The notes below the pieces were generated by a model. That model did no database searches, had not been told where the DNA came from, and saw nothing but the letters and a program-made list of their open reading frames with translations. The translations under genes were made by a program, and so were the position numbers. Positions 11,217 to 36,435 of a stretch of 64,000 nt of DNA are shown here, piece by piece. How positions within the stretch are numbered: position 1 is the stretch's first letter; every line of letters begins with the position of its first letter. This stretch comes from Candidatus Nanopelagicales bacterium (GTDB taxonomy: Bacteria; Actinomycetota; Actinomycetes; S36-B12): the NCBI GenBank assembly GCA_044374195.1, contig JBILOY010000005.1, positions 4,052 to 68,051 of the forward strand, given 5' to 3'.

Positions 11217-11217
11217 G

Positions 11218-12612: not shown

Positions 12613-12663
12613 TCGCACGAAGCTTCTCGGCACGACACAACAAGGCCTACATAGGGAGATCAC

Positions 12664-13431
12664 ATGATGGACGCACTCGGCGAGCCGCAGTCGGTTCTGG
12701 TACTCGGCGGCAGCAGTGAGATCGCCCTCGAGACCGTGAAGGCATTGCCGCGCAACCGCCTTCGCCGCGTACTTCTCGCTGGTCGTCCTAACGCGGCGCG
12801 TCATGCAGCGGTCGAGTCGCTCACTGCCCTCGGTATCGCCGGAGTCGAAGCAGTGGACTTCGATGCGAAGGACACGGCGTCGCACGGCAACATCATCGAC
12901 GGTGTGTTCGATGCCGGTGATGTTGACCTCGTCATCCTCGCCTTCGGCGTGCTCGGTGATCAGGATGCCGCGGAGGCTGATCCGAGCCTCGCGGTCGAGG
13001 TGGCCACGACCAACTACACCGGTGCGGTCAGCGTCGGCCTGCATGTTGCTCGTCGCCTGCGGAAGCAGGGGCATGGCGCACTCGTTGTGCTCTCCAGCGT
13101 TGCAGCTGATCGTGCTCGCCGTGCCAACTATGTGTACGGCTCGACCAAGGCGGGTCTCGACGCATTCGCGCAAGGACTCGGTGACGCCCTGCACGGCTCA
13201 GGTGCATCAGTGCTCGTTGTGCGCCCCGGTTTCGTGCGCACTCGCATGACTGCCGGAAAGCCTGAGGCTCCGATGACGACCAACCCGCAGGATGTTGCCG
13301 AGATCATCGTCAAGGCGCTGCGTAAGGGCAAGGAAACCGTCTACGCACCCGGGCCCCTGATGTACGTCATGGGTGTCATGAAGAACTTGCCGCGCCCGGT
13401 GTTCCGCAAGATCAGCGAGAAGCAGGGCTAG
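12664..13431 (+). CDS. dprE2: decaprenylphospho-2'-keto-ribose reductase (SDR)
   Basis: 255-aa SDR (LVLGGSSEIAL, YGSTKAGLD) immediately downstream of dprE1. GGGAG RBS-like sequence at 12654-12658. Confidence 0.85.
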   Translation: MMDALGEPQSVLVLGGSSEIALETVKALPRNRLRRVLLAGRPNAARHAAVESLTALGIAGVEAVDFDAKDTASHGNIIDGVFDAGDVDLVILAFGVLGDQDAAEADPSLAVEVATTNYTGAVSVGLHVARRLRKQGHGALVVLSSVAADRARRANYVYGSTKAGLDAFAQGLGDALHGSGASVLVVRPGFVRTRMTAGKPEAPMTTNPQDVAEIIVKALRKGKETVYAPGPLMYVMGVMKNLPRPVFRKISEKQG

Positions 13432-16139: not shown

Positions 16140-16210
16140 AGCGGGTGACGGGAATCGAACCCGCGCTCCAACCTTGGGAAGGTTGTGTGATGCCATTTCA
16201 CTACACCCGC
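16140..16210 (-). tRNA. tRNA-Gly (anticodon CCC)
   Basis: Hand-folded 71-nt cloverleaf: acceptor GCGGGTG/CACCCGC, D arm GTGA/TCAC, anticodon arm CAACC-TTCCCAA-GGTTG, T arm GCGGG-TTCGATT-CCCGT, discriminator U. CCA is not encoded. Confidence 0.9.
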
Positions 16211-16864: not shown

Positions 16865-17257
16865 ATGGAGCAGCGAAATGTCTTGGGCGGATCACTCGAG
16901 GTCTGCAGTCTCGAGCCGCTCACCGGTTTCTACCGCGATGGATACACGAACACTGGCCCCGACGATGTCGGCTCGCACACTGTCTGCGCTGTTGTCACCG
17001 CTGATTTTCTGGCCCATCAGGCGTTGATCGGTAACGACCTGTCGACTCCAATGCCGCAGTACGGATTTCCGGGGCTTCAGCCCGGTGACCAGTGGGGCGT
17101 ATGCGCGGGGCGCTGGTTGCAGAGCTTCGAGGCCGGGGTGGCAGCGCCTGTTGTACTCAGGGCTACCAACGAAGCGGCCCTGCAATTCGTTCCCCTGGAT
17201 TCCCTCGTGGAATCGGCGGCCGACGCCCCCGATGATCTTTCGGGCCTGTTGCCGTAA
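16865..17257 (+). CDS. DUF2237 family protein
   Basis: 130-aa ORF. NVLGGSLEVCSLEPLTGFYRDGYTNTGPDDVGSHTVCAVVTADFL matches my recollection of the DUF2237 signature. Confidence 0.7.
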   Translation: MEQRNVLGGSLEVCSLEPLTGFYRDGYTNTGPDDVGSHTVCAVVTADFLAHQALIGNDLSTPMPQYGFPGLQPGDQWGVCAGRWLQSFEAGVAAPVVLRATNEAALQFVPLDSLVESAADAPDDLSGLLP

Positions 17258-17289
17258 CCCCGCTTCAGCCAGGCGAGTAATCTCGTCCC

Positions 17290-17865
17290 GTGCTGCTATC
17301 TGATCGCGATATCAAGGCCGAGATTTCCGCGGGCCGCGTTGCCCTCGAGCCCTACACCGAATCAATGATCCAGCCGTCGAGCATCGACGTGCGCCTGGAT
17401 CGCTGGTTCCGGGTCTTCGAGAACCACAAGTACCCGTACATCGACCCGAGCCAGGAGCAGCCTGATCTCACTCGCATGATTGAGCCCGACGGTGACGAGC
17501 CCTTCGTGCTGCATCCGGGCGAGTTCGTGCTCGGCTCCACCTTCGAGGTAGTCAGCCTTCCTGATGACATCGCCGGTCGACTCGAAGGCAAGAGCTCACT
17601 TGGTCGTCTCGGCCTCCTTACGCACTCGACCGCGGGCTTTATCGATCCGGGCTTCTCTGGCCACGTCACCCTCGAACTCTCGAATGTCGCGAACCTGCCG
17701 ATCGTGCTGTACCCGGGCATGAAGATCGGTCAGCTCTGCCTGTTCCGTCTGTCGTCGCCGGCTGAGCATCCCTACGGTTCTGAGAAGTACGGCTCGCGCT
17801 ACCAGGGCCAGCGTGGCCCGACTCCGTCGCGCTCCTTCGCGAACTTCTACCGCACGCAGGTCTAG
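17290..17865 (+). CDS. dcd: dCTP deaminase (actinobacterial dCTP deaminase/dUTPase type)
   Basis: 191-aa ORF with GTG start. [29 protein letters not shown]. Confidence 0.9.
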
Positions 17866-17877
17866 ACCTGCACAGCG

Positions 17878-19962
17878 TCACTTGTTGGCGGAAGCCGGCA
17901 ACGTGGCGAGCGCACGACTGAAGGTCGAGGCGAGCGCATTGGAGGCCGCGATGCTGATGTGTCCGTCATCGCGGTAGAGGTAATCGTCTCCCAGCTGAGT
18001 CGTACAGATGCCTTCTGCGCAGAAGAAGTCACGCAGGTCCAGCAGCGTGACGCCCAGACGATCAGCAACTGCGGTGAACGCATTTCGTGCGGGCGCCTGT
18101 GCCTTGTCAGCGATCTTGCGAGACATGGTCACCGCCAGATCATCATCTGTAGCAATTCGGATCGCGGAGAACTGCTGCGGATCGGCACTCAGTGGGGCGC
18201 CGAAGTACGGGACGTCCTGCACCAGCACGACCTGGTGCCCGGCCTTCTGCAACCGACTCAGACTCGACTCGAGCCCAACCTCGAGAGCCGCGTGCTTGAT
18301 CTTCGGATCACGCGAGAGCGAATCGGGCGTTAGGCCGGCAGAGAAGACCCGTGAGTTCCAGTAGCTGCTTGACGACGTGACGATCACGATGCCGGGCGGC
18401 TGCTGGTCGAGGTAGTCCAAGGTGCCCTGAACGAACGACCGGCACGGCCACTGTCGCTTCGCCGTCGACTTCAGGTACACGTCAAAGAACGGGCACGCGT
18501 TCGCGGTGGCAATGCGCACCGGATGACCGGTTGCCTCACCTGCAGCAATGACTGCCTCACTGAGGTGATCTGCGTGTGAATCTCCGACAAGGTAGATCGT
18601 GGTGCCGCTCGCCGACTCATTCCAGAGGCATTCAGCCGCCTTCGGTGCATCGAAGGCCCGCGACTCGTTGCAGCCGGCTGCATTCGCCACATGCATGGGC
18701 GTTGCCGCAGCAGTGAAGTCACGAATGCGCTGATTCCAGAAGCCGTTGTCGGCAGCGACGATCAGTAGCAGTGAAATCACCATTGGCGGAACGAGGGTGA
18801 AGGAGACAATCCGAACCATGCGCGCCCGGCTGACCTTCCGAAGGTTGCGAATGGGCTGCTCGACGAATCGATACGAAAGTAGTGCCGGAAGCAATGAGGC
18901 GACCGCGGCAATGACGGCAATGCCCGGGGTTTGCGGGAAGAGCAGCAGTGCGAACACGATGAGCGGCCAATGCCAGAGGTACCACGAGTACGAGATATCG
19001 CCGACGGCCACGAAGGGCCGCGTGCCGAGTAGGCGGCTCACGGCATTCGCGCTCGTGCCAGCGGCAAGGAGTGCGAATGTGCTGACGACTGGCAGCAAGG
19101 TCATCGGACCAGGCCACGCAGTGGCTGGATCAATGAGCCACAGACTCGCGAGGATGCCGGCAACGCCCGCCACGGCGAGAATCAGGGCCGTCGTGGCACG
19201 AAGGGCGCGCATGCCTCCGGCGATCATCAGGGCAAGCAGGGCCCCGGCGGCGAATTCCCAGACTCGAGTGACTGGTCCGTAGAACCCGACGAGCCAGCTG
19301 GGGATGAGTGGGATTCGGTAGCCACCGGCCTGGAGGACGGCCATGAGGAACGACACGACGCCGACAAGCACCACGATCGAGATCACGGGTGTTTGTCGAG
19401 TACGCAGGCGCTTCATCAGCTTCCAGCCGATGAAGAGCAAAAGCGGGAAGATCAGGTAGAACTGCTCCTCGACCGACAGCGACCAGGTGTTGAGCAGCGG
19501 ATTAGCTGCGGCAGGTGCATCGAAATAGCCACCGGTGTTGTTCGCGATGACGATATTTGCAGCCAGCAGAAGCGCACCGATCCCGGTCTCCGCGGTGATC
19601 TGCTGCGCACCGAGCGGAGACTGAATGAGCGCGGAGATAACGACGACCACCAGAACGAGCACTGCGAGAGCCGGCGTGAGCCGACGAAACCTGCGTGCGT
19701 AGAACGTACGGAAACGCAAAGTGCCGGTGCTCCGCCACTCGCGTGCGAGCATTGCGGTAATCACGAAGCCGGATATGACGAAGAAGATGTCCACGCCTGT
19801 GAAACCGCCGGGAACATTCAGCCCCGCGTGAAAAGCGACGACGACGAACACTGCGATGGCACGTAGACCCTGAACATCGAGCCGTCGTGCAGTGCCCTGA
19901 GCAGTCTCAGAGTCCACACGTGGCGCGTTCAATTCTCCTCCAAGAACATGATCGGCCCTCAT
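17878..19962 (-). CDS. acyltransferase-3 family O-acyltransferase with C-terminal SGNH domain (OafA/OatA-like)
   Basis: 694-aa ORF. N-terminus LDVQGLRAIAVFVVVAFH, ~10 TM helices, C-terminal soluble domain with LVGDSHADH. Confidence 0.8.
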   Translation of the reverse strand: MRADHVLGGELNAPRVDSETAQGTARRLDVQGLRAIAVFVVVAFHAGLNVPGGFTGVDIFFVISGFVITAMLAREWRSTGTLRFRTFYARRFRRLTPALAVLVLVVVVISALIQSPLGAQQITAETGIGALLLAANIVIANNTGGYFDAPAAANPLLNTWSLSVEEQFYLIFPLLLFIGWKLMKRLRTRQTPVISIVVLVGVVSFLMAVLQAGGYRIPLIPSWLVGFYGPVTRVWEFAAGALLALMIAGGMRALRATTALILAVAGVAGILASLWLIDPATAWPGPMTLLPVVSTFALLAAGTSANAVSRLLGTRPFVAVGDISYSWYLWHWPLIVFALLLFPQTPGIAVIAAVASLLPALLSYRFVEQPIRNLRKVSRARMVRIVSFTLVPPMVISLLLIVAADNGFWNQRIRDFTAAATPMHVANAAGCNESRAFDAPKAAECLWNESASGTTIYLVGDSHADHLSEAVIAAGEATGHPVRIATANACPFFDVYLKSTAKRQWPCRSFVQGTLDYLDQQPPGIVIVTSSSSYWNSRVFSAGLTPDSLSRDPKIKHAALEVGLESSLSRLQKAGHQVVLVQDVPYFGAPLSADPQQFSAIRIATDDDLAVTMSRKIADKAQAPARNAFTAVADRLGVTLLDLRDFFCAEGICTTQLGDDYLYRDDGHISIAASNALASTFSRALATLPASANK

Positions 19963-20075
19963 GGATTGCAGTGGCGCGTATGCATCTTATGGGGGGTCAG
20001 GGCAGAGCCTTGAATGGCGTATTCTTATGGTCTGTAGTTGGCAGCCCTGCCGAATCCCGAGGAGTCAAACGCCGC

Positions 20076-21749
20076 ATGAATCGCAAGCGACTTTCGGTGA
20101 TCGCGGCGTCGAGCATGACTATCGTCTTCACCCTCGCGCTGTTCGGTGCGCTTTCACTCGCTTCCAGCGGAAGCGCGTCGGCAACCGCCACTCGTGAAGA
20201 GGTCAGCGCATCGCCGACCGAGTCCGCGAGTGAGACTCCTCTCCCGCAGACCGGCCAGATCAGCGACATCAAGAACGTCGTCCTGCTGCTCGCCGATGAC
20301 CTTGACTGGGCGACCTTCAATGAGGTTCCCAGGCTCAAGAACTTGATGGCTGAGGGAACGACCCTCTCCAACTTCGTGGTGACCTCGTCGCTGTGCTGCC
20401 CGTCTCGTACCTCAATTCTGCGCAGCCAGTTCGTGCACAACCACAAGGTGCTCTCGAATGTGCCGGAGACCGGTGGTGGGTGGGCGAAGTTCAACGCCCA
20501 GCGTCTGCAGCGTGACTGCCTCCCGAACTGGCTGCAGTCGAACGGGATCTCAACCTCGCTGGTGGGCAAGTACCTCAACGGCTTCCCGAAGGGTGCGCCT
20601 GCACCAACCTACGTGCCGCCGGGATTCAACAACTTCATTACATCGATCTCGCTGAATCAATCCTACAAGGGCTACAACTACGTGCTCAATGAGAATGGCA
20701 CGCTTCGCAAGTACGGAAATGCGCCCACGGACTTCATCAACGATGTGCTGACGGCGAAGGCCACGAACATCATCGCCGAAGCGACTACGCCCTTCTTCCT
20801 GGAATTCGCCTCATACTCTCCGCACACGCCTGCACCTGTGGCTGCGCGGAATGTCGGTTCGCATGTGGGCTCATTCATTCCGCGCACCCCTTCCTACAAC
20901 TCGCGCGGAATCGACGAACCCGCCTGGTTGCGAAAGATCCCGTCTCTTTCGCCGAATCAACTCGCCAACCTCGATGGGATGTGGACCCGCCGCCTGGAGT
21001 CGAGCGAGAGTCTCGCGGATTCCTACGATGCGCTGGTTGCTCAGCTCAAGGCCAGCGGACATTCGCAGGACACCCTGATCATCGTGACGTCGGATAACGG
21101 CTACCACCTGGCCTCGCATCGATTGCCGTCGGGAAAGCAGACGCCCTATCGCGAGGATTCCGTCGTGCCGGCAGTTCTCATCGGGCCAGGTATCGAGCCA
21201 GGGCGCGTGATTAGCGAGATGACCTCGACCCTGGATCTCGCACCGACGATCGCTCAGATTCAAGGAGTTCAGCCGCCGGGTTGGATTGACGGGCGGAGCT
21301 TGCTGCCGTTACTCAACAAGAGCACCGATGTCGCGTGGCGCACTGGCGCCTTGACCGAAAGCCTGGCACGTGCGCGCCGCGGGGATCCGGACTTCGGACT
21401 GGGTGCCGCACCAACCTTCCGTGCGCTTCGTACCCAGTCGTGGCTGTATGTCGAGTACTCCGATCGCAGCGTGCAGTTGATCGATCTGGTCAATGATCCG
21501 TTCGAAGTCAACAACGTGATTCGCACGACCTCGCCGACCATTGTGCAGCAATTGCAGGCACAATTACGCGCCCTGAGCGTCTGTGCGGGCCCTTCGTGCT
21601 TGATCGCCGACAGCATGCCGACGCCCGAAGCCACGGGTGAACTGATCCCGGTCGAGACTCCGATTCCTGGTCCATCGGCCTCGTCGACGCTGAGCCCTTC
21701 GGCGAGCGCATCTGCGCTGCCTACGCCTACAGCATCACCTGTCGGATGA
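20076..21749 (+). CDS. secreted formylglycine-type (Cys) sulfatase
   Basis: Start trimmed to ATG 20076, with GGAG 12 nt upstream. Signal peptide. NVVLLLADDLDW. Nucleophile motif C-C-P-S-R at 20394-20408 (SSLCCPSRTSILRSQFVHNH). P/S/T/A-rich C-terminal tail. Confidence 0.85.
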   Translation: MNRKRLSVIAASSMTIVFTLALFGALSLASSGSASATATREEVSASPTESASETPLPQTGQISDIKNVVLLLADDLDWATFNEVPRLKNLMAEGTTLSNFVVTSSLCCPSRTSILRSQFVHNHKVLSNVPETGGGWAKFNAQRLQRDCLPNWLQSNGISTSLVGKYLNGFPKGAPAPTYVPPGFNNFITSISLNQSYKGYNYVLNENGTLRKYGNAPTDFINDVLTAKATNIIAEATTPFFLEFASYSPHTPAPVAARNVGSHVGSFIPRTPSYNSRGIDEPAWLRKIPSLSPNQLANLDGMWTRRLESSESLADSYDALVAQLKASGHSQDTLIIVTSDNGYHLASHRLPSGKQTPYREDSVVPAVLIGPGIEPGRVISEMTSTLDLAPTIAQIQGVQPPGWIDGRSLLPLLNKSTDVAWRTGALTESLARARRGDPDFGLGAAPTFRALRTQSWLYVEYSDRSVQLIDLVNDPFEVNNVIRTTSPTIVQQLQAQLRALSVCAGPSCLIADSMPTPEATGELIPVETPIPGPSASSTLSPSASASALPTPTASPVG

Positions 21750-23964
21750 CGTTTTCGGCGGCATGACCGTCGTCGAGTGAACAGAAGCGCTCACGGAAAT
21801 CAGCGAGCAAACGTCGAGACTCATCATTCGAGTACCGGCGCTCGGCCAGAATCGTCGTGAGCTGGGCCTGGTTAACCGCCACGGCGCCGGGCGGCTGTGC
21901 CAGTAGATCGAAGTAGGTGCCCCGTGACTCGCGATAGGCATCCCAGTCATCGGCGTAGATGACGATGGGCCTGTCGAGGATCGCGAAGTCGAACATGACG
22001 GAGGAGTAATCGGTGATCAAGATGTCAGCCGCCAGGTAGCAGTCGACGATCGACGGCAGCCTCGATCCGTTGATGAGCCGCCCTTCGCGCTCGAGTCGAT
22101 CGACTGCGGGGCCGAGCGAGGTCGTGTGATGCGCGCGCACCAGCAGAACGAAATCGTCTGGCAGTGCATCGATCAAGGACTCGAGATCGAGCCGAAGAGA
22201 GGTATCGCCGGCTGCCTCGCGGAAGGTGGGTGCGTAGAGCACCAGGGTGCGCTCCGAACCTACGCCCAGTGCGCTGCGGCAGCGCTCGACGTCATCAGCG
22301 GTCGAGCGCACCAGTACGTCATTTCGCGGGTATCCAAACTCGAGCCACGAATATGAGCACGGGTAGGCGTGGCTCCACATCTCAGTCGAATACGCATTCG
22401 AGCTGAGCGCGTAGTCCCAGCGGTCGCTGCGGCGCAGGAGGTCGACGAACTCCTGACGATTGCGTGCGGCATCCTGCGCAACTACCTGACCGTTCTGCCG
22501 AGGGGTCACCCGATTCGGATCTACGGCAGTGCCGGCAACTGCCTTGCCCATGACATCGAGGCCGCAGTATTTCAGTGGGGTGCCATGCATTGTCTGGATG
22601 TGCACCTGGCCTGGGCGTTTCACGTAGGCACCAGGGAAGTTCACGTTGTTGACGAAGTACTTCGCGCGCGCGAAGGCCGCCCACTGCTTGACCCCATTGG
22701 GTTCAATCGCTTTCACGCCAGGCGGCAGGAGCCCTTGCTTGGACTTATCGAGAATCCACACCGCAGTGAGGTCGGGCGCAATCCGCTGCATTTCCTCGAA
22801 GATTGCCCGCGGATTGCAGCCGAAGCCGGTGCCCCAGTACTCGGAGAACACCACTAGCTTCGGGTTAATCGGGAGAAGTCGCATGAAGCCGTAGTACAGG
22901 CGGCCCAGGGCACGCACCTTGCGAACGGCCCGGCGCACGGGCCAGTAGATCTTGCCGAGGCGGCGTCGGGTAGGCACCCGTCGAACATCGATCCAACTGT
23001 AAGCAGCGAATGCGCGGTAGTCATGCTCGCGAAAGAGACGCCCGCGGATATTGCTGGGTAGGTTCGCGGTCTGCGAATCATCAGCAGGCGGATACAAGCT
23101 CTTGGCCATGATGGCTGCCTGCTCAAAGAAGCGCTTCTTGTCTCTCTTCGCCAGGCGTCCCTTGTGTTGCAGGATCGTGACGAAGTGATTGATCATGATG
23201 TCGTAGAGATGCTTGCGAGTGCGTGGGTCGATACCAAGGCGATCGGCTTCGGCGAACACGAGCTCGTACTGCGCGAAGATGTCGAAATGCTTGGGGCTAG
23301 TGGTCGACAGGATGCTGCCGCCTTCACGACGCTGCCGGTAAAGGAGAACCACGCGATTGATCGTCACTGCGCTACTGGCGTTCAGAAGCACTGTGTAGGT
23401 GAACGAGACATCCTCATAGAAGCCGGTACGGAAGCTCACGCCGAGACGTTCGAGGAAGTCTCGGCGGTACGCCTTGTTGCAGGCGATGGGGAGCAAGTTG
23501 AAGAGCGCGAGGTGATCACTGGGAACGAAGACACCGGGCGACAGGCGGGCCAAGAGCTCGGCGCCCCAGCTGACCGCCTGCTTGCCGTCCCACCAGACGC
23601 GTGCGTAGTTGTAGACGAGCAGCTCGGGAAGTGAGTTGGCCTGCAATTTCGCCGCAATGGCGGAGAGTGAACCGGGTGCGAGGGTGTCGTCACCATCTAG
23701 AAAGAGCACGTACTCGCCGGTTGCTGCAGCAACGCCAGCATTGCGTGCGAGGCCGAGTCCGACGTTCTGGGTCAGATGCAGGGGCTTGATGCGCGAGTCG
23801 GCGCGAGCCATCTCGTCAGCGATTTCGCCACTGTGATCGGGTGTGCAGTCATCGACGACAACAATCTCGTAGTCATCGAAATCCTGATCGAGAACAGAAG
23901 TGATGCATTCGCGCAAGTAGGACTGGACGTTATAGATCGGCACGATGATCGAGAAGAACGCCAC
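21727..23964 (-). CDS. bifunctional GT2 glycosyltransferase / CDP-glycerol glycerophosphotransferase (TagF/TarF-like)
   Basis: 745-aa ORF with GTG start. N-terminal GT2 (FSIIVPIYNV, VVVDDCTPD, FLDGDD). C-terminal TagF-family motifs (MHGTPLKYCG, LYAPTFRE, ITDYSSVMFDF). Confidence 0.85.
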   Translation of the reverse strand: MAFFSIIVPIYNVQSYLRECITSVLDQDFDDYEIVVVDDCTPDHSGEIADEMARADSRIKPLHLTQNVGLGLARNAGVAAATGEYVLFLDGDDTLAPGSLSAIAAKLQANSLPELLVYNYARVWWDGKQAVSWGAELLARLSPGVFVPSDHLALFNLLPIACNKAYRRDFLERLGVSFRTGFYEDVSFTYTVLLNASSAVTINRVVLLYRQRREGGSILSTTSPKHFDIFAQYELVFAEADRLGIDPRTRKHLYDIMINHFVTILQHKGRLAKRDKKRFFEQAAIMAKSLYPPADDSQTANLPSNIRGRLFREHDYRAFAAYSWIDVRRVPTRRRLGKIYWPVRRAVRKVRALGRLYYGFMRLLPINPKLVVFSEYWGTGFGCNPRAIFEEMQRIAPDLTAVWILDKSKQGLLPPGVKAIEPNGVKQWAAFARAKYFVNNVNFPGAYVKRPGQVHIQTMHGTPLKYCGLDVMGKAVAGTAVDPNRVTPRQNGQVVAQDAARNRQEFVDLLRRSDRWDYALSSNAYSTEMWSHAYPCSYSWLEFGYPRNDVLVRSTADDVERCRSALGVGSERTLVLYAPTFREAAGDTSLRLDLESLIDALPDDFVLLVRAHHTTSLGPAVDRLEREGRLINGSRLPSIVDCYLAADILITDYSSVMFDFAILDRPIVIYADDWDAYRESRGTYFDLLAQPPGAVAVNQAQLTTILAERRYSNDESRRLLADFRERFCSLDDGHAAENVIRQVML

Positions 23965-24051
23965 GGAAATGAGGATACAGGTCTGTGATTAGCGCGGAAT
24001 CGCAGGAAACGCCTCACGATCGCATTCATGGCGCTGTAGTAGGGTTTTCGA

Positions 24052-24948
24052 GTGACTTCTTCTGCGAACGATTGCCTCAATCCCATTCTCGTTGGCGGCA
24101 CCGGTCGTAGCGGATCCACCATCTTGGGCCGCCTTCTAGGGCAGCACCCCGATCTCCTCCTGACCAACCCCGAGGAAGTCCGCTTCATCGCGAATGACCA
24201 CGGCATGGCCGAGGCACTCGCCATGAAGCTTGGCCCGTGGCCGCGCCGCATGCGTGCGAAGCGCGAGGCGAAGCTGGCCGTGCAGCGCACGAAGGGTCTG
24301 TGGTACTTCCGCAATAAGAAGACCGGCCTGCATACCTCCATGACCTTGGAGGAAATCGACGAGATCGCCGCCCCCTACTTCGCTGGATTCGGATCAACAC
24401 CTGTCGAGGCAACCCGTGCATTCGTCTATGCAGTGATGGCCAAGGTGACCGATGGCCGTGATGGTCGTCGCTGGGTTGATGGCACGCCCGCAAACGCGCG
24501 CATCACTGACTTCATCGAACCGATCTACCCCGACTGCCAGGTCGTGGCCATGATCCGCGACGGTCGCGATGTCGCTGCCTCATTCGTAGCGCAGAAGTTC
24601 GGGCCGACCGAGATCTTCGCGTCACTTCGCCAATGGGAGACCCGCACGCTGCGCATGCGTCAAGCCGAATTGGCCTGCGCGCCCGGCCGAATCCTGACCA
24701 TCGACATGCTCAACCTTGTCGATGTCGATCGCGACGGAACCCTCCAGCGCATCTGCGACTTCCTGAACCTCCCGATCACCCCCGAGTTCCGCGCTTGGTT
24801 CAACGAGAACGTGCGACTCGAGGATGCCAATGTCGGGCGCTGGCGCACGCAGTTCGATGCCGAGACCGTGAAGAAGATCGATTCGGTGTACGCCGAGATG
24901 GTCGAGCGGGTAGCCGCCGCGGGCGCGCAGGTTCCGCTGCCCTCCTGA
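24052..24948 (+). CDS. PAPS-type sulfotransferase family protein
   Basis: 298-aa ORF with GTG start. 5'-PSB-like loop LVGGTGRSGSTILG. 3'-PB-like MIRDGRDVAASF. No signal peptide. Confidence 0.75.
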   Translation: MTSSANDCLNPILVGGTGRSGSTILGRLLGQHPDLLLTNPEEVRFIANDHGMAEALAMKLGPWPRRMRAKREAKLAVQRTKGLWYFRNKKTGLHTSMTLEEIDEIAAPYFAGFGSTPVEATRAFVYAVMAKVTDGRDGRRWVDGTPANARITDFIEPIYPDCQVVAMIRDGRDVAASFVAQKFGPTEIFASLRQWETRTLRMRQAELACAPGRILTIDMLNLVDVDRDGTLQRICDFLNLPITPEFRAWFNENVRLEDANVGRWRTQFDAETVKKIDSVYAEMVERVAAAGAQVPLPS

Positions 24949-24964
24949 CCGTGATTGTTGTGGG

Positions 24965-25768
24965 CTAGGTCCCGAAGCCGCCGGTCGCTGACACCACGGA
25001 ACCGTTGAGAGCTGCGCCCTCGATGGAGCAGCAGAAGGCGATCGTCGATGCGATCTCGCTGGGGGAAATCAGCCTTCGAATGAGCTGCGATGAAGCGAAA
25101 TCATTGACATCGCTGAGCTCGTAGAGATCAGCGGTCGCCCGCAGCATGTCGGTATCTGTTGAGCCTGGCGACACGGCAACCGCGGTGACTCCCGTTCCGA
25201 CAAGATCGGCCGCGAGCCCTTTGACGATGCCGATAACGGCGTGCTTGGCGGCGTTATAGGCCGCGAGCCTAAAGAGACCTTGTGTACCCGCGGCGGAAGC
25301 GACTGCCACGAATCGACAGCCGCTGGGATTCGAGGATGCCAGCATGTGCGGTACGCATGCGCTAGCGGTGTTCCAGACGCCGATGACGTCAACGTCGAGA
25401 AGCGTTTGCAAGTGCTCCGACGGTGTCTCCCACAAAGGTTTTCCGCCGATAATGACGGCCGCCGCCGCGACTGCTGCATCGAGTCTTCCGAATTCAGTGA
25501 TCGCGAATTGCGCCGCTTTACGAAGACCTTCGGGATTGCGCACGTCAATGATCATCGGTATCACTCGGTCGCCGTACTTTGTCGCAACCTCATTGAGTTG
25601 AACAGCGGTGCCAAGGTCGTAGGCGATGCCGGCGCTGCCTTCCCGATCAGCAGATGCGCACGAGTCGATCGCGATGATCGTGTAATCACGTTGCACCAGT
25701 GCATCAACTGTTGCTGCCCCGATTCCGCGCGCTGCCCCGGTGACCAGGGCGACTCGACGTTCGGTCAT
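24965..25768 (-). CDS. mycofactocin-coupled SDR family oxidoreductase (LimC/carveol dehydrogenase-like)
   Basis: 267-aa SDR (VTGAARGIGAA, YNAAKHAV) with the subfamily-typical insertion after beta2 (AIDSCASADREGSAGIAYDLGT). ATGA overlap with the mftE stop at 25765-25768. Confidence 0.75.
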   Translation of the reverse strand: MTERRVALVTGAARGIGAATVDALVQRDYTIIAIDSCASADREGSAGIAYDLGTAVQLNEVATKYGDRVIPMIIDVRNPEGLRKAAQFAITEFGRLDAAVAAAAVIIGGKPLWETPSEHLQTLLDVDVIGVWNTASACVPHMLASSNPSGCRFVAVASAAGTQGLFRLAAYNAAKHAVIGIVKGLAADLVGTGVTAVAVSPGSTDTDMLRATADLYELSDVNDFASSQLIRRLISPSEIASTIAFCCSIEGAALNGSVVSATGGFGT

Positions 25769-26484
25769 GAGTGAACTCCGCTCGCCGTTGGTATCAACTG
25801 CCCGTGGGTATTCACGAGGTTTCCCTTCACGAACTCTGACACGTCGCGAGCCATTTCCTTAAGGCAGCGTGCACCTTCTGCCGCGGTGGCCCCAGCCGGA
25901 TCACCGAGTACTCCGTTGGACGTGACTGCTGATACTCCTCCGGCGATGATCTCGGGAAGCAGATCGCGAATACTCGCAGTATTGCCAATTTCCGCCAGGT
26001 CTAGACGTACCCGGTGCGGCGCCAAATGAAGCATGATCGAGGTTTCCGTGTAGCCGGCGTGAGCATCGACATCCTCCGTTGCACAGGCCACCCAGGCGCA
26101 GTCGTGGCCCTCGTACCGAAGCTGGTTGACAGCCTCGGCGAGTGCGGTGATGTTCCCTCCATGCGCATTGACGAAGATGACTCGATCTGTCCAGTGCGCG
26201 GCTGAGCGAACGAACTCGATCAGTACGTGGACCAGCGCTTGACGGCCGATCGATACCGTGCCTGGGAACGATTGATGTTCACCGCTGGATCCGTAGACAA
26301 GTGGCGGGAGCACCACTGCATCGGGACCAATGAGCAAGGCCGCGACTTTCGCTACTTCTTCCGCAATGACAACGTCGGTGTCGAAAGGCAAATGTGGACC
26401 ATGCTGCTCGAACGATCCCGTAGGCACTAGGGCAAGAGGCCGCGTGGGCATCGTTGACCAGGTGAGGTTCGCGAGCGATTGCAT
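25765..26484 (-). CDS. mftE: mycofactocin precursor peptide peptidase (creatininase family)
   Basis: 239-aa ORF. LVPTGSFEQHGPHLPFDTD, NAHGGN. Position in the mft operon. Confidence 0.85.
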   Translation of the reverse strand: MQSLANLTWSTMPTRPLALVPTGSFEQHGPHLPFDTDVVIAEEVAKVAALLIGPDAVVLPPLVYGSSGEHQSFPGTVSIGRQALVHVLIEFVRSAAHWTDRVIFVNAHGGNITALAEAVNQLRYEGHDCAWVACATEDVDAHAGYTETSIMLHLAPHRVRLDLAEIGNTASIRDLLPEIIAGGVSAVTSNGVLGDPAGATAAEGARCLKEMARDVSEFVKGNLVNTHGQLIPTASGVHS

Positions 26485-26497
26485 GATCGTCGCTGCT

Positions 26498-27682
26498 TCA
26501 GACTCGGACGGTTGCGCCGGCGGTGCGCGTGAATCCGTCGGGAATGATCACGTCGGCGGGTGAGAGATCGTGGATCGATGAATGGCCAAGTCCGTAGACC
26601 GCGGAGTCGATACCACCGCGCAGCACGTCAAGAACATTCTCGACACCGGCCTGCCCGTTCGCCGCGAGTCCCCACAGGTATGCCCGCCCGATCATGACCG
26701 CCCGTGCGCCAAGAGCCAGAGCCTTGACCACGTCACTTCCGCGACGGATGCCGCTGTCGAGAACGATCTCGACCTGATCACCGACCGCCTCACTCACTCC
26801 GGGAAGGAATCGGATAGGTGCCGGTGTCGAATCGAGATTGTTGCCGCCGTGGTTGGACACGGAGATAGCAGTGACTCCGGCATCGACCGCGCGCCTGGCA
26901 TCGTCGATGCGTGAGATTCCCTTGAGCATGAAGGGCCCGCCCCATTCACGTGCGAGCCAGGCGATGTCAGCCCAGGTAGCCGGCGGGGTCTGCATCCACT
27001 CGAAATAGGCACCGAAGAAAGTCGGTGCTACGCCGGCATCGTTCGCGAGATTGGGCGTCGTGAGATCCGGGAATCCGCCGCTGCGAGCGAAGTCGAGGAA
27101 CCAGCGCGGGTGAGTGAGCACCTCGGGTGCCATCCGGAGCCGCGTCTTCATGTTGACCGATTCCGGGATAACTGGGCTTCCCCAGTCGCGACCGTTGGAG
27201 AAGGACCAGTCCAGGGTGAGAATCAATCCCTTCGCACCAGCTGCGCGTGCTCGATCCAGTCGCTTGACCATCGTCTCGCGCGTACCCATCCAGTACACCT
27301 GCATGAAGACGCTCTGATTCACCGCGCATACGTCTTCTACCGATTTGCTCGCGAATGAGCTGAGCCCCATCACTGTTCCTCGTGCAGCGGCAGCGCGGGC
27401 TACGGCGACCTCGCCTTCGGGGTGAACGGCCTGCACTCCGGTTGGAGAGATGATCACGGGCAGCGAGATCTCTTGCCCCATTACGGAAGTTGTGAGATTT
27501 CGCTCCGCCGAAAGCTCGGCAACATGCGGGGCAAAGCCGAGTTGTCCGAAGGCATCCATGTTGTCTGCGTACGAGATGCCCTTCTCCGAGCCCGCGAGCA
27601 GTGCACTGTAAACCGAACCGGGCAGCCTCTTCTGCGCCCGACGCTGTGCCTCAGCGACACTCTCGAACCAGGAATTTCCCAC
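26498..27682 (-). CDS. mftD: pre-mycofactocin synthase (FMN-dependent alpha-hydroxy-acid oxidase fold)
   Basis: 394-aa ORF. SVSNHGGNNLD, GIRRGSDVVKALALGA. Position between mftC and mftE. Confidence 0.9.
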   Translation of the reverse strand: MGNSWFESVAEAQRRAQKRLPGSVYSALLAGSEKGISYADNMDAFGQLGFAPHVAELSAERNLTTSVMGQEISLPVIISPTGVQAVHPEGEVAVARAAAARGTVMGLSSFASKSVEDVCAVNQSVFMQVYWMGTRETMVKRLDRARAAGAKGLILTLDWSFSNGRDWGSPVIPESVNMKTRLRMAPEVLTHPRWFLDFARSGGFPDLTTPNLANDAGVAPTFFGAYFEWMQTPPATWADIAWLAREWGGPFMLKGISRIDDARRAVDAGVTAISVSNHGGNNLDSTPAPIRFLPGVSEAVGDQVEIVLDSGIRRGSDVVKALALGARAVMIGRAYLWGLAANGQAGVENVLDVLRGGIDSAVYGLGHSSIHDLSPADVIIPDGFTRTAGATVRV

Positions 27683-27699
27683 GAGATGAACCTCTCGAA

Positions 27700-28902
27700 T
27701 CAGACGTGTGACGAATGGGACGTTGGTCGGCCAATGCTGAGCACCGGGCTCTCATTGCAGGAACGAGATGGCATGCGCTCCGGAGTTACGCGGCTGTGAT
27801 CTTGGCTCGGCGCAGGAATGGTGCGACCGATTTGGATAAGCGCCTTCTCGCTGTGTCCTTGGACGCACTCGGGATCGGGACCATCAAGCGGAAGACCGGT
27901 GAAGAACTTCGCCGCCATGCAACCGCCACGACAGGCATCGAAGAAGTTACAACTGGCGCATGCTCCCGCGCTTTGTGGTGAGCGCAATTCGGTGAAAAGC
28001 TCACTCGACTTCCACACTTTGTCGAACCCGCCCGGTGCCAGCACGTTGCCCGCGAGGAAGGTGTCATGAATTGCGAAAGGGCAGGCATAGACATCACCGA
28101 TGGGATCGATGAGGCACACAACGCGGCCTGCACCGCAAAGGTTCAGACCGGGGAGGCTCTCGCCGAACGCAGCTAGGTGAAAGAACGAGTCACCCGTGAG
28201 GACGTTCTCGCCCTCCCTGACGAGCCAGTCGTAGAGCACTCGCTGCTGATCCGCAGTGGGGTGAAGGTCGTCCCACACATCCGCGCCGCGGCCGGAAGGA
28301 CGAAGTCTGGTGAGTCGAAGCGTGGCGCCGTGCTCATCGGCAAGGGCCTTGAACTCATCGAGCTGGGTCACGTTCTCTCGCGTGATGACGACCGAGATCT
28401 TCGCATTGGAGAACCCCTCGGCAGACAGATTCCTCAGCGCCGCGATGGCCATATCGAATGAGCCCTCGCCACGAATTCTGTCATTTACCTCTGCGGTCGC
28501 GCCATCGAGGGAGATCTGGATGTCGACGTAGTCATTGGCGGCAAGCTGTTTTGCGCGCTCGCGATTAATGCGCACGCCATTGGTCGAGAACTTCACCCCA
28601 ACCTGATGTGCGACGGCGTAATCGAGCAGGTGCCAGAAATCCGGACGTACCGTCGGCTCACCTCCACCGATGTTGACGTAGAACACCTGCATGCGCTGAA
28701 GCTCATCGATGATTGCCTCGCATTGCTCCGTCGTGAGCTCACGCGGATCGCGGCGGCCGGAGGAGGACAGGCAGTGCACGCAGGAGAGATTGCATGCATA
28801 GGTGAGTTCCCAGGTCAGACAGATCGGAGCGTCGAGTCCGAGCTCAAACTGCTGGATGAGCGAGCCACCCTGGGGTCGAGGCGCAGCGGTGACGTCAGGC
28901 AT
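27700..28902 (-). CDS. mftC: mycofactocin radical SAM maturase
   Basis: Start trimmed to ATG 28902. CNLSCVHC radical-SAM cluster motif. C-terminal SPASM Cys clusters (CPFAIHD, CASCNFFDACRGGC). Overlaps the mftB stop by 8 nt. Confidence 0.9.
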   Translation of the reverse strand: MPDVTAAPRPQGGSLIQQFELGLDAPICLTWELTYACNLSCVHCLSSSGRRDPRELTTEQCEAIIDELQRMQVFYVNIGGGEPTVRPDFWHLLDYAVAHQVGVKFSTNGVRINRERAKQLAANDYVDIQISLDGATAEVNDRIRGEGSFDMAIAALRNLSAEGFSNAKISVVITRENVTQLDEFKALADEHGATLRLTRLRPSGRGADVWDDLHPTADQQRVLYDWLVREGENVLTGDSFFHLAAFGESLPGLNLCGAGRVVCLIDPIGDVYACPFAIHDTFLAGNVLAPGGFDKVWKSSELFTELRSPQSAGACASCNFFDACRGGCMAAKFFTGLPLDGPDPECVQGHSEKALIQIGRTIPAPSQDHSRVTPERMPSRSCNESPVLSIGRPTSHSSHV

Positions 28903-29170
28903 GTGCGGGCTCCCGTGTTCTCGTGATGAGTTCAGCAGAGGCAAGTGCCTCAAGTGCCTGGACGTAGACCGGCCACTGGGTTGCGGGAATTCCCTGATCG
29001 GCGAGAGCTTCTCGCACCGTGGGGCTGGTGGATAGTGCTTGTACGACCGCTACTAGCTCCGGGCGTTTGAGGAAGGTGAGGCGCCGATTATCGAAGTTGT
29101 ACGCCAGGGCACCGAAGGGCTCCGGCCGAATCGCAACTGCGGGGGCAAGTTCCCAGGATTCGTCGAGCAT
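28895..29170 (-). CDS. mftB: mycofactocin biosynthesis chaperone (RRE/PqqD-like)
   Basis: Start trimmed to ATG 29170. MLDESWELAPAVAIRPEPFGALAYNFDNRRLTFLK matches the MftB N-terminus as I recall it (M. tuberculosis ...VAVRPEPFGALLYHFGTRKLSFLK). Confidence 0.85.
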   Translation of the reverse strand: MLDESWELAPAVAIRPEPFGALAYNFDNRRLTFLKRPELVAVVQALSTSPTVREALADQGIPATQWPVYVQALEALASAELITRTREPAHA

Positions 29171-29172
29171 GT

Positions 29173-29259
29173 TTAGTAGACGCCGCACATGCCGTCGATG
29201 GAGACGTCCTCGATAAGGGTCTCGACGGTGATCTCTTGCTCGGATGCGTTCGGATCCAT
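29173..29259 (-). CDS. mftA: mycofactocin precursor peptide
   Basis: Not in the ORF track (28 codons). Hand translation of the minus strand gives MDPNASEQEITVETLIEDVSIDGMCGVY*, ending in the canonical IDGMCGVY. GGAGGAAACC lies upstream of the ATG. The stop is 2 nt before the mftB ATG. Confidence 0.9.
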   Translation of the reverse strand: MDPNASEQEITVETLIEDVSIDGMCGVY

Positions 29260-29311
29260 GGTTTCCTCCATAAGACTCAACGAAACGGTGGGTTATGCGT
29301 ACTGTGGACAA

Positions 29312-29332
29312 TAATGGCACCGAGAGCCATAA
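29312..29332. promoter_or_regulatory. candidate MftR operator (imperfect palindrome TAATGGC-N7-GCCATAA)
   Basis: 6/7 complementary arms in the 103-nt AT-richer mftA/mftR divergent intergenic region. Confidence 0.25.
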
Positions 29333-29362
29333 AACAAGGGTTTCAAGAGATTCGTTGATGAG

Positions 29363-29986
29363 GTGGTCATAGTGCAGGTCACGGCGGTCACGCGCGGTCG
29401 CCCCCTCACGACTACGCATGCCGACATCGAGGCCGCGGCATTCAGTTTGTTTGCTCGACACGGATTTGATGCCACCACTGTCGACGAGATCGCACAGGCG
29501 GTGGGGATCGGCCGCAGAACCCTCTTCCGGTACTTCCCGTCAAAGAACGACATCCCCTGGGGAAGATTCGATGCGAGTCTCGAAGACTTTGCCGCCAAGC
29601 TTGACGCTTCTGATCCACAATTGCCACTGTCGACAGCCGTGAGCAATGCCATCATCGCCTTCAACGACGTACCTCCGGAAGCAATCAGCCAGCATCGACA
29701 GCGGATGTCCCTGATCTTGCACACGGAAACGCTGCAAGCACATTCCGCTCTGCGATACCGACAGTGGCGTCACGTGGTGGCGGAGTACGTTGCGAAACGT
29801 CTTGGCGAGAAAACAACTGATCTTGTTCCGCGCACTATCGGTCACATCGCGCTCGCGGTCGCCGTGTCTGCCTATGAACAATGGCTGGTGGACCCAGATC
29901 AGCCGTTGGAATCGCTGCTCAGGGAGGCGATGAACTCACTGAATCTCTTCCTTGCCCAATCAGAAAGTGCCGGGCATCGCGTGTGA
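29363..29986 (+). CDS. mftR: mycofactocin system TetR-family transcriptional regulator
   Basis: 207-aa ORF. TetR HTH (FDATTVDEIAQAVGIGRRTLFRYFPSKNDIPWG). Divergent from mftA. The exact start (GTG 29363 or downstream) is uncertain. Confidence 0.8.
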   Translation: MVIVQVTAVTRGRPLTTTHADIEAAAFSLFARHGFDATTVDEIAQAVGIGRRTLFRYFPSKNDIPWGRFDASLEDFAAKLDASDPQLPLSTAVSNAIIAFNDVPPEAISQHRQRMSLILHTETLQAHSALRYRQWRHVVAEYVAKRLGEKTTDLVPRTIGHIALAVAVSAYEQWLVDPDQPLESLLREAMNSLNLFLAQSESAGHRV

Positions 29987-31425
29987 TTCCTCTGTACGAA
30001 GTCTCCGTGAAGTCACGTCCCCCGGAAGCCATCAGAATTCATCCGCGGACAACAGTGCTCTCGCAAGGAGAGATTGTGCTCGGAGGCTCGCCATGGCGAA
30101 TAAGTCGCATTCCCGACGGGTTCCGAATGGTGTTACGAAGGCTGGCTGCCGGCGAGGCCGTACCCGTCGATGAACTAAATGCAAAGATCGCCCTCGAATT
30201 GATTGACCGGGGACTCGCGCTACCGAGATACGCGGAGGAGTCCGCACGTGAGTGCACGATTATCATCCCCGTTTTCGAGAACCCCACTCAATTAGATAAA
30301 TGCCTGAAGGCCTTGGGGAAACGACACATTGTCATCGTGGTCGACGACGCATCGGTGAACGCACAATCGATCCGCGAGGTCTGCGACAGGCATGGGGCTC
30401 AGCTACTGGTGAACACGATCAATGTAGGCCCGGCCGGTGCTCGAAATCGTGGGCTCGCGGAAGTGACCACCGAGTTCGTGGCTTTCATCGACTCAGATTG
30501 CATCGCTGAGGCGTCCGCGATTGACACTTTGCTTGAATCAATGAACGAGCAGCGACTCGCGATCGTTGCACCCCGGGTAATGCCTGAGCGTGCTGCGACG
30601 ATCATCGACAGGTTCGAGAGAACTGATTCCGCTCTCGACATGGGAGCGACTCCAGAGCTCGTCAGGCCAGGTGCGCATCTTGGTTACGTGCCGTCGGCAG
30701 CAATGGTGGCGCGACGTGCCACTCTCGGCGATCAACCATTTGATCCGAATCTCCGCACGGGCGAAGATGTTGATGCAGTGTGGCGGATCACCGAAGCGGG
30801 ATGGCTGGTGCGCTTCGAGCCCTCGGTGAGAGTCCATCACGCAAGTAGGCACAGTCTGCGCGAACTTCTCGGTCGACGAGTGGAATACGGTCTCTCGTCC
30901 AGGGAGTTGAGTAGGCGGTACCCCGCGAATCTCGTGCCCGCTCGGGTGGCTCCCTCCTCACTACTCATCGGAACTGCAATCGCGGTCAGGAAACCTACGT
31001 TGGCTGTTCTCGCAGCTGTCGTGACTGCTGCAGTCGTGGCACGGAAAGTCAGACAACTTCCCGAACCCTCTTCGCTGACGGCGCGACTGACGGCACTGTC
31101 GTTGAACTCCGACACGCGTGCAGCGGGATCCCTCCTTCGGCGTGAGTGGTGGCCCGTCGGGGCGGCCTGTCTGGCATTCGCGCCGAAGAGTCAGGTCGCC
31201 CGTGTCGGCTTCGTGCTGATGCTCGCCCCGATTCTGGCCGACTGGAGATCGCGACGATCAACGCTGGACCCACTGACCTATTCGGCCCTGCGATTACTGG
31301 CCGACGCGGCCTACGGAACCGGGGTCATCGCGGGTGCTGTCTCGTCGCGTAACTCCGACGCCCTGCGTCCCAGATTACGGATAACGAGACGACATACACG
31401 CTGGTCAAACCGCAAAAACCGGTGA
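29983..31425 (+). CDS. mftF: mycofactocin biosynthesis glycosyltransferase (GT2)
   Basis: Start placed at GTG 29983 (GTGTGA overlap with the mftR stop); GTG 30007 is also possible. N-terminal LGGSPWRISRIP region, GT2 core (IIIPVFEN, VVVDDAS, FIDSDC), C-terminal TM helices. Confidence 0.8.
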   Translation: MIPLYEVSVKSRPPEAIRIHPRTTVLSQGEIVLGGSPWRISRIPDGFRMVLRRLAAGEAVPVDELNAKIALELIDRGLALPRYAEESARECTIIIPVFENPTQLDKCLKALGKRHIVIVVDDASVNAQSIREVCDRHGAQLLVNTINVGPAGARNRGLAEVTTEFVAFIDSDCIAEASAIDTLLESMNEQRLAIVAPRVMPERAATIIDRFERTDSALDMGATPELVRPGAHLGYVPSAAMVARRATLGDQPFDPNLRTGEDVDAVWRITEAGWLVRFEPSVRVHHASRHSLRELLGRRVEYGLSSRELSRRYPANLVPARVAPSSLLIGTAIAVRKPTLAVLAAVVTAAVVARKVRQLPEPSSLTARLTALSLNSDTRAAGSLLRREWWPVGAACLAFAPKSQVARVGFVLMLAPILADWRSRRSTLDPLTYSALRLLADAAYGTGVIAGAVSSRNSDALRPRLRITRRHTRWSNRKNR

Positions 31426-31466
31426 CAGCGGGGCAATTTCCTCGAAGAAGGAGGATCCCGACACGA

Positions 31467-31501
31467 GAGAAGCCGCCGACCTAGGCAGGTGGCGGCTTCT
31501 C
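31467..31501. terminator. bidirectional hairpin terminator between mftF and the Fe-S protein gene
   Basis: GAGAAGCCGCC-13 nt-GGCGGCTTCTC, a perfect 11-bp stem between convergent genes. No clear T-tract. Confidence 0.6.
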
Positions 31502-31516
31502 TACGGAAAGCGGGAC

Positions 31517-33715
<2,199 letters not shown>

Positions 33716-33858
33716 GAGGCGACCCTACTGCCGTCGTGGGGCCAGCAATAGGTGAGCAGACACCAGATCCCCCCATATAAGCGTGAGTCTGACCACATGC
33801 CGGGCGAACCGACCGGGCTGAAGGGGTGGGCCGCAAGGACAAGATTCCCGAAGATTTC

Positions 33859-33886
33859 TTGAAATTTCGGCCGGAAAGCGGAATAT
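33859..33886 (+). promoter_or_regulatory. candidate dnaK promoter (TTGAAA-16 nt-GAATAT)
   Basis: -35-like TTGAAA at 33859-33864 and -10-like GAATAT at 33881-33886, just upstream of the HAIR sites. By-eye match only. Confidence 0.3.
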
Positions 33887-33913
33887 CCAAGGCAATGCCC
33901 TGGTTGGAATTGA

Positions 33914-36420
<2,507 letters not shown>

Positions 36421-36435
<15 letters not shown>

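Follow-up and report, generated by a model that had tools for sequence, protein, structure and literature searches.

Conserved linkage of sulfatase, TagF-type and sulfotransferase genes in uncultured Actinomycetota: a candidate system for a sulfated teichoic-acid-like wall polymer

Why would a bacterium keep a gene for attaching sulfate and a gene for removing it on either side of a gene of the teichoic-acid type? This question is raised by a locus at positions 17878-24948 of a 64-kb stretch of DNA (hereafter the window, which means the whole stretch analysed) from a Candidatus Nanopelagicales bacterium (contig JBILOY010000005.1). Four adjacent genes encode a membrane O-acyltransferase, an exported sulfatase, a homologue of the CDP-glycerol glycerophosphotransferase TagF and a sulfotransferase of the type that uses 3'-phosphoadenosine 5'-phosphosulfate (PAPS). 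A preliminary description, made from the sequence alone, had proposed that they build, sulfate and desulfate a teichoic-acid-like polymer. The reading that we prefer, at a probability of about 0.45, is that a sulfated teichoic-acid-like wall polymer is made here that has its own external sulfatase; the core of the locus would then be a three-gene module of a wall-teichoic-acid-type glycopolymer pathway, here joined by the O-acyltransferase. The features of the locus are as follows.

17878..19962, minus strand: membrane O-acyltransferase with AT3 and SGNH domains (open reading frame of 694 aa, Pfam)
19963..20075: intergenic region of 113 bp between the divergent acyltransferase and sulfatase genes
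20076..21749, plus strand: exported type I (formylglycine-type) sulfatase of 557 aa, with a predicted N-terminal signal peptide or anchor and a Pro/Ser/Thr/Ala-rich C-terminal tail
20394..20408, plus strand: C-C-P-S-R nucleophile motif as read from the sequence, Cys107 being the predicted formylglycine precursor
21727..23964, minus strand: TagF-type CDP-glycerol glycerophosphotransferase of 745 aa with an N-terminal GT2 domain
23965..24051: intergenic region of 87 bp between the divergent TagF and sulfotransferase genes
24052..24948, plus strand: leaderless PAPS-type sulfotransferase of 298 aa
24094-24120, plus strand: GGTGRSGST (aa 15-23), the 5'-phosphosulfate loop of the sulfotransferase
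24556-24570, plus strand: RDGRD, the 3'-phosphate motif of the sulfotransferase

Open reading frame calls, translations and Pfam hidden Markov model searches of the window bear out the existence, coordinates and families of the four genes as first described. C-C-P-S-R is found at exactly the nucleotides named before, and the translations contain MHGTPLK, LYAPTFRE, ITDYSSVMFDF, GGTGRSGST and RDGRD. Two pairs of genes are divergent, acyltransferase with sulfatase and TagF with sulfotransferase, separated by the two spacers listed; the convergent sulfatase and TagF genes overlap by 23 bp at their 3' ends. The sulfatase likely starts at the ATG at 20076, the 557-aa form being the choice of the gene caller on identical metagenome contigs; an alternative open reading frame from the GTG at 19887 has 620 aa and would overlap the acyltransferase gene, the start of which is placed ten codons later by gene callers. 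The source is a freshwater actinobacterium not yet in culture, and proteins identical to those of the window are found on lake-metagenome contigs in ENA. Localisation was predicted from a hydropathy scan of each protein. This gave a single N-terminal hydrophobic segment for the sulfatase and none for the sulfotransferase, in agreement with the claim that the former is exported and the latter leaderless and cytoplasmic; the TagF homologue has no hydrophobic segment either, and the acyltransferase has at least eight in its N-terminal half, before the SGNH domain. The GC profile is flat across the window, with no anomaly that would mark a recent island. No sigma-70-like consensus and no useful terminator were detected in a scan of 17200-25900, which is uninformative for a high-GC actinobacterium.

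Is the association of these genes peculiar to one contig? Species-representative genomes were scanned with an alignment of the sulfotransferase, which yielded 80 loci; all of them belong to uncultured Actinomycetota, under labels such as Nanopelagicales and acSTL. The loci were split by means of tblastn with the four window proteins, those with a sulfotransferase identity of at least 54% representing 30 species-level genomes. A TagF homologue was found in 28 of these 30 and the sulfatase in 25, every miss corresponding to a contig end, and the order and orientation sulfatase (plus), TagF (minus), sulfotransferase (plus) is constant wherever the contig reaches. The divergent arrangement of TagF and sulfotransferase is kept in all related loci. 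Pfam E-values and an arrangement kept in more than 20 species are far beyond chance. The flanks of the triad differ: dcd and the mycofactocin genes in the window, SnoaL and ABC genes in L007, UvrD and VldE-like genes in L008, FUR and GT2 genes in L093, and redoxin and 2OG oxygenase genes in L094. The pairwise identities of the three triad proteins, which go down to 48-56%, correlate with an r of 0.93-0.97 over 23 species. The differing flanks and the correlated divergence show that the three genes have long moved together as a unit. The acyltransferase adjoins the triad in only 11 of the 30 related loci, those of the closest subgroup; hence the adjacency of four genes expected from the preliminary description is conserved for sulfatase, TagF and sulfotransferase and holds for the fourth gene in that subgroup only.

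Does the linkage reflect one common substrate? At the 52 loci with a sulfotransferase of at most 51% identity, neither TagF nor sulfatase was found within the fetched flanks and the neighbours are housekeeping genes. A sister clade of the sulfotransferase with 43-51% identity and the same invariant motifs is widespread in Nanopelagicales-type genomes (L010, L038, L040-L090), sitting among Cpn10, Ham1, RNase PH, murI and PALP enzyme genes. Sulfatase homologues with 47-48% identity also occur outside triads, at L091 (10001-11584) and L092 (10001-11632), with neither TagF nor sulfotransferase. An MFS transporter gene precedes each of them, and genes for cystathionine gamma-lyase/synthase, MsrA and cystathionine beta-synthase adjoin together with conserved housekeeping genes, which hints at a scavenging, sulfur-related role for these sister-group sulfatases. 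Given such stand-alone cousins of both sulfur enzymes, the triad is a specialised association and not a property of the families.

The isolated relatives, as well as the catabolic function of the closest solved sulfatases, which act on algal and mucin glycans, lend themselves to an explanation in which the proteins share a role at the cell surface and act on different substrates. The sulfatase would scavenge exogenous sulfated glycans or organosulfates, from sources such as algal exudates or humic matter, for carbon or sulfur acquisition, and the sulfotransferase would modify a lipid, a small molecule or another component. This offers no obvious reason why the sulfatase should have stayed beside TagF in 25 of 25 assessable species while the flanks changed and the three proteins diverged together, and no glycoside hydrolase or uptake system accompanies the sulfatase in the triad loci examined. 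We consider this explanation unlikely.

Pfam assigns the sulfatase to PF00884 with an E-value of 3e-40 over profile positions 1-300 of 301, followed by SGSH_C at 3e-13, and at least 58 sulfatases with an E-value below 1e-5 are matched among solved structures. C107-C-P-S-R111 is invariant in an alignment of 16 sulfatase homologues (A2), as are D74, D75, K165, H250, D340, N341, H344 and K354, which by their position relative to known sulfatases we take to be metal-binding and catalytic residues, and a C-terminal pair, C503 and C508. The invariant set together with the cysteine pair matches what would be expected of an active, extracytoplasmic formylglycine sulfatase. LtaS and GacH, glycerol-phosphate transferases that belong to the same Pfam family, were considered as an identity for this gene and rejected, because they have a threonine nucleophile and a multi-helix membrane domain whereas this protein has a Cys-type CxPxR motif and a single N-terminal segment. 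Only some relatives share the Pro/Ser/Thr/Ala-rich tail (21600-21749 of the window, A2 columns 540-609), which might span the wall as a linker or be a site of glycosylation.

What does this sulfatase resemble most? A profile search against the PDB ranks the S1_25 ulvan sulfatase module 6hr5 first (2e-38, over the full length), followed by mucin and algal-glycan sulfatases and phosphonate monoester hydrolases, all solved relatives being distant. The GlcNAc-6-sulfatase 5g2v appears at rank 11 (1.5e-27) and aligns with the C-terminal half only. Several homologues are named N-acetylglucosamine-6-sulfatase in JGI, which are automatic names and the sole agreement with the resemblance to the GlcNAc-6-sulfatase branch that had been suggested earlier; we find no specific support for it. 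Another reading is raised by the solved structures 4upk, 2w8s and 2vqr, phosphonate monoester hydrolases and multifunctional proteins of the alkaline phosphatase superfamily that rank among the best matches, as well as by the best NCBIfam match, the phosphoric/sulfuric ester hydrolase PehA at a sub-threshold score, and by the tail-to-tail position of the gene with that of a phosphodiester polymerase. The enzyme could be a formylglycine-dependent phosphodiesterase or phosphonate-monoester-hydrolase-like 'teichoicase' that trims or recycles the glycerol-phosphate polymer, for instance under phosphate limitation, the sulfotransferase acting independently. However, matches of the 4upk, 2w8s and 2vqr type cover mainly the C-terminal half, the full-length ones being the carbohydrate sulfatases 6hr5 and 7stt only, and the constant presence of a PAPS-type sulfotransferase, often with a second one, is left unexplained. 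A teichoicase is very unlikely in our estimation.

The polymer side of the module rests on the TagF homologue, in which Pfam recognises Glycos_transf_2 (2e-36, aa 5-155) and Glyphos_transf PF04464 (1.6e-106, aa 358-744). Residues 4-738 align with residues 4-709 of S. epidermidis TagF (3l7i, 2.5e-65), that is over the full length. The protein had been described as a fusion of GT2 and TagF; both domains are indeed there, and the end-to-end alignment shows the ordinary Staphylococcus epidermidis TagF architecture in place of any special fusion. His460 and His612 lie opposite His444 and His584 of 3l7i, the catalytic histidines in the published TagF structure, and the LDGDD motif, with the DxD of the GT2 part, is conserved too. 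Among NCBIfam models TarF scores best, at 207 bits against a cut-off of 550, and the best solved match is the polymerase TagF; these TarF and TagF matches do not distinguish a processive polymerase from a single-addition primase.

Which molecule receives the sulfate? The sulfotransferase matches Pfam Sulfotransfer_3 (4.8e-24), and GGTGRSGST, following a strand at aa 12-16, and RDGRDVAAS (aa 169-177), following a strand at aa 163-168, are invariant in 17 homologues. Its AlphaFold model has a mean predicted local distance difference test score (pLDDT) of 91. When this model was compared with the PDB by Foldseek, the top 23 matches (E-value of at most 1e-3) were all sulfotransferases or retinol dehydratase, the tyrosylprotein sulfotransferases TPST1/2 coming first and CurM, Stf1, Stf9, NDST and 3-OST thereafter. 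The modelled fold is thus certain to be that of a sulfotransferase, and the nearest matches do not assign an acceptor class. TPST is also the best PDB sequence match (1.5e-6), and the PEEVR segment aligns with the GEETR segment of TPST, the glutamate of which is reportedly catalytic. The enzyme might accordingly be thought a bacterial tyrosylprotein sulfotransferase, RaxST-like, acting on a protein or peptide, possibly a surface protein, with the sulfatase either reversing this or being unrelated. The similarity in sequence and structure is weak, though (15-19% identity, TM-score of about 0.6), and does not extend beyond the PAPS-binding core; in the loci examined the triad is not accompanied by a conserved gene for a peptide or precursor, and its conserved partner is a glycopolymer polymerase. 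Tyrosine sulfation therefore strikes us as highly improbable.

The fourth protein matches Pfam Acyl_transf_3 PF01757 (7e-27, aa 30-364) and SGNH PF19040 (3e-39, aa 441-682), and with its AT3 domain and predicted extracytoplasmic SGNH domain it would be of the OafA/OatA/SucT type. The NCBIfam model of mycobacterial SucT scores 168 bits, weak and far below the cut-off of 1275.

What accompanies the triad in relatives? Many carry an ABC-2 permease and an ATPase gene directly after the sulfotransferase gene, with best matches to the mycobacterial galactan exporter Wzm/Wzt and to TagH. Larger clusters among the relatives contain GT4 and GT2 enzymes, a second TagF-like gene, a nucleotidyltransferase (NTP_transf_3) and a CDP-alcohol phosphotransferase, and once an LCP gene. 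The richest locus is L093, where an 18-kb cluster comprises GT2, CDP-alcohol phosphotransferase and AT3-SGNH genes, the triad, the exporter, nucleotidyltransferase and GT4 genes, a 924-aa second TagF-like protein and further glycosyltransferases.

Wzm/Wzt-type exporters recognise terminal caps, and methyl or phosphate caps are found on O-antigens that depend on ABC transporters. With a sulfotransferase gene beside such an exporter in many relatives, and on the same genetic evidence as for a durably sulfated polymer, sulfate might be a transient cap for chain-length control or as an export signal, removed after export to leave a mature polymer with little or no sulfate. This reading is purely inferential. 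The ATPases of the relatives, at 266-281 aa, have no carbohydrate-binding extension that we could see, and a second protein of sulfotransferase fold in many relatives fits decoration at multiple sites better. We regard such a cap as distinctly unlikely.

That second protein has 365-390 aa, no Pfam family, and the motifs HIGVHKTGTT and TLRN..PSAWQQ; it is encoded upstream of the sulfatase in 11 triad species. Members were located as follows.

L093 4854-5984 and L008 4713-5846, minus strand: Pfam-less family members, with nine further clade A loci
L095 8001-9173: Pfam-less family member

The family has more than 1600 database relatives. For a member of 376 aa no match was obtained by Pfam (E-values up to 1), by hhalign against the Sulfotransfer_3 alignment or by profile search of the PDB. 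The top PDB matches of its AlphaFold model (pLDDT 85) are sulfotransferases, namely 3rnl (8.6e-4), the NDST sulfotransferase domain and 3-OST-3, so that, judged by its modelled structure, the family probably consists of sulfotransferases not recognised before. One member, of 43% identity, shares an operon with TagF-like genes, an LCP ligase gene and an ABC-2 exporter; another is found in an unrelated context. Searches of the window by tblastn with the genes of relatives did not find the family there. Its occurrence beside TagF clusters strengthens the case for sulfation as a recurring theme of TagF-type clusters in these bacteria.

How might the parts work together? What is observed is the enzyme families, catalytic motifs that are intact, a predicted side of the membrane for each protein and a genetic linkage of long standing. 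From these we infer which molecule the sulfotransferase modifies, which one the sulfatase acts on and that the two are identical, so that a single polymer would both receive sulfate and lose it again. At the cytoplasmic face of the membrane the TagF homologue would add glycerol-phosphate from CDP-glycerol to a lipid-linked chain, and its GT2 domain may also add sugar. The soluble sulfotransferase would use PAPS to O-sulfate the polymer, or its sugar or glycerol hydroxyls, before a Wzm/Wzt- or TagGH-type ABC exporter, encoded beside the module in relatives, moves the chain out. Outside the cell the AT3-SGNH enzyme would O-acylate the polymer and the exported formylglycine sulfatase would strip sulfate, such that the degree of sulfation, and with it surface charge, hydration and receptor properties, could be edited or turned over after export. 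That a whole clade of abundant freshwater Actinomycetota, uncultured so far, sulfates a TagF-made polymer in the cytoplasm, by one or two PAPS enzymes, and edits the sulfate outside is a wider proposal that we put forward as possible yet doubtful.

Several points weigh against the sulfated polymer that we prefer. Conserved linkage is evidence of a common role and not of a common substrate. More distant sulfotransferases (at most 51% identity, 52 species) and sulfatases (47-48%) are found with neither TagF nor the other sulfur enzyme nearby, which means that neither family is intrinsically tied to teichoic acids. The sulfotransferase groups with no acceptor class and is closest, weakly, to tyrosylprotein sulfotransferases and not to carbohydrate ones. 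All carriers of the triad are uncultured. Neither an exporter nor a TagO/A/B/D or LCP gene turned up in the window, and the searches made there gave no gene for PAPS synthesis, formylglycine-generating enzyme (FGE) or anaerobic sulfatase-maturing enzyme. Finally, cultured Nanopelagicales lack complete assimilatory sulfate reduction (PMC12817590), and the supply of PAPS in the group is thus not a given.

Are the missing functions encoded close by? Searches of the window by tblastn with the companion genes of relatives gave no ABC-2 exporter, GT4 or TagB-like gene; the exporter and other teichoic-acid genes of this genome must lie elsewhere, if present at all. Motifs of FGE (GNVWEW-type), adenosine 5'-phosphosulfate kinase, CysN, CysD and CysH gave no genuine match in the window and about 90 loci, a search too crude to establish absence; the hits that it did give, a glycine repeat in DnaJ and an STGKDS lying out of frame in L019, were false. 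A neighbouring radical SAM/SPASM gene was considered as an anaerobic sulfatase maturase, an idea that we rejected: with 653 bits against a cut-off of 265 the gene is MftC, and it is part of a complete mycofactocin cluster. This cluster occupies 24965-31425, directly right of the module, and consists of a mycofactocin-coupled SDR gene, mftE, mftD, mftC, mftB, mftA, a TetR regulator and mftF, with mftA as 32 codons at about 29173-29271 (minus strand), the product of which ends in IDGMCGVY. It has no connection with the sulfation genes, and relatives do not have it at this position. In L012 (10001-17500), where the sulfotransferase is 94% identical, DnaJ lies 7.4 kb from the sulfotransferase gene versus 12.8 kb in the window (24052-36900); judged by this one landmark, the mycofactocin cluster therefore appears to be missing there.

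To the left of the module lie a tRNA gene, a secreted protein gene, DUF2237 and dcd. The tRNA gene (16140-16210, minus strand, 65.5 bits) is the sole one and the only Rfam match, 1.7 kb from the module, with no composition shift. Farther away, a row at 10170-13431 encodes a UbiA-family prenyltransferase, a FAD_binding_4/ALO oxidase and a short-chain dehydrogenase. Judged by its Pfam domains and order, such a row is typical of decaprenyl-phosphate-arabinose synthesis (DPPR synthase, DprE1, DprE2) and suggests a putative arabinofuranose-containing envelope glycan. An MsrP/MsrQ-like pair at 45825-47193 consists of a protein with a molybdopterin oxidoreductase domain and, after it, a membrane protein of the cytochrome b561 type.

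What would a sulfated wall polymer mean? Teichoic acids are the main anionic wall polymers of Gram-positives, and their charge is controlled by phosphate, D-alanine and sugars. Sulfation with an external sulfatase would add a new chemical class to bacterial envelopes as well as a reversible charge switch. If the wider proposal for the whole clade is true, these bacteria would have the first teichoic acid known to be sulfated and the first system that writes and erases sulfate on a bacterial wall polymer. It might tune surface charge, or serve to evade phages or grazers in phosphorus-poor water, in lineages that dominate freshwater bacterioplankton and where surface properties decide susceptibility to both. 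It would also give a bacterial sulfatase a role in biosynthetic editing, such enzymes being normally read as catabolic. Three genes and a Pfam-less family of apparent sulfotransferases make a compact, testable target.

Which known systems come closest? The TagF/TagGH pathway of S. epidermidis and Bacillus subtilis teichoic acid shares the full-length polymerase alignment, the GT2-like N-terminal domain and both catalytic histidines, and relatives carry a TagH/Wzt-type exporter, a further TagF/TagB-like gene, GT4 and once an LCP ligase gene. Unlike that pathway the window is without tagO, A, B, D, G and H. Full-text literature searches returned neither a sulfated teichoic acid nor a paper in which a sulfotransferase is connected to a glycerophosphotransferase, nor a described teichoic-acid locus with a PAPS-type sulfotransferase or a formylglycine sulfatase; the earlier statement that a sulfate writer and eraser pair on a bacterial wall polymer is undescribed accordingly agrees with the literature found. 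The known modification that tunes teichoic-acid charge is D-alanylation, not sulfation.

Sulfated surface polysaccharides are also known from rhizobia (LpsS/KpsS) and from Synechocystis (synechan). Among Gram-negatives, in which sulfated surface glycans made by cytoplasmic sulfotransferases are established, the Cobetia marina capsule is alike in having a cytoplasmic PAPS-dependent sulfotransferase inside a surface-glycan cluster and an ABC-transporter-dependent pathway (PMC11766843). In contrast to the triad, these Gram-negative and cyanobacterial clusters contain genes for PAPS synthesis and no sulfatase, their polymers are not TagF-made phosphodiesters and their hosts are not Gram-positive. 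Sulfated surface glycans of actinomycetes are so far only suspected: the wps-1 glycan cluster of Actinoplanes missouriensis has two sulfotransferase genes and a sulfated polysaccharide has been proposed for it without chemical proof (PMC13390465). This is likewise an actinobacterial glycan cluster with sulfotransferase genes, but with Wzx/Wzy instead of TagF and an ABC exporter, no sulfatase, and other sulfotransferase families.

Mycobacterial Stf enzymes are PAPS-dependent actinobacterial sulfotransferases of the same fold (Stf1 and Stf9 were matched), and with the Ats enzymes the phylum has Cys-type sulfatases too. Stf enzymes differ in acting on trehalose lipids, glycopeptidolipids or menaquinone and in not belonging to a fixed module with TagF or a sulfatase. 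AlgL, BcsZ and PslG are hydrolases inside polysaccharide-synthesis operons, which resemble the sulfatase as exported, product-degrading enzymes encoded in the biosynthetic locus and sent to where the polymer emerges; they cut the backbone, whereas the sulfatase of the window would remove a substituent. Animal heparan sulfate offers the nearest functional analogy for a polymer that is first made and then edited outside: PAPS-dependent 6-O-sulfotransferases act inside the secretory or biosynthetic compartment, and the formylglycine sulfatases Sulf1 and Sulf2 edit the finished polymer outside the cell. Polymer, compartments and lineage are unrelated, and the window sulfatase showed no specific sequence affinity to GNS or Sulf in the profile search, which leaves an analogy only. 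Set against these systems, what is new here is a teichoic-acid-type cluster with a module for sulfation and desulfation, which suggests, rather than proves, a sulfated and externally trimmed wall polymer.

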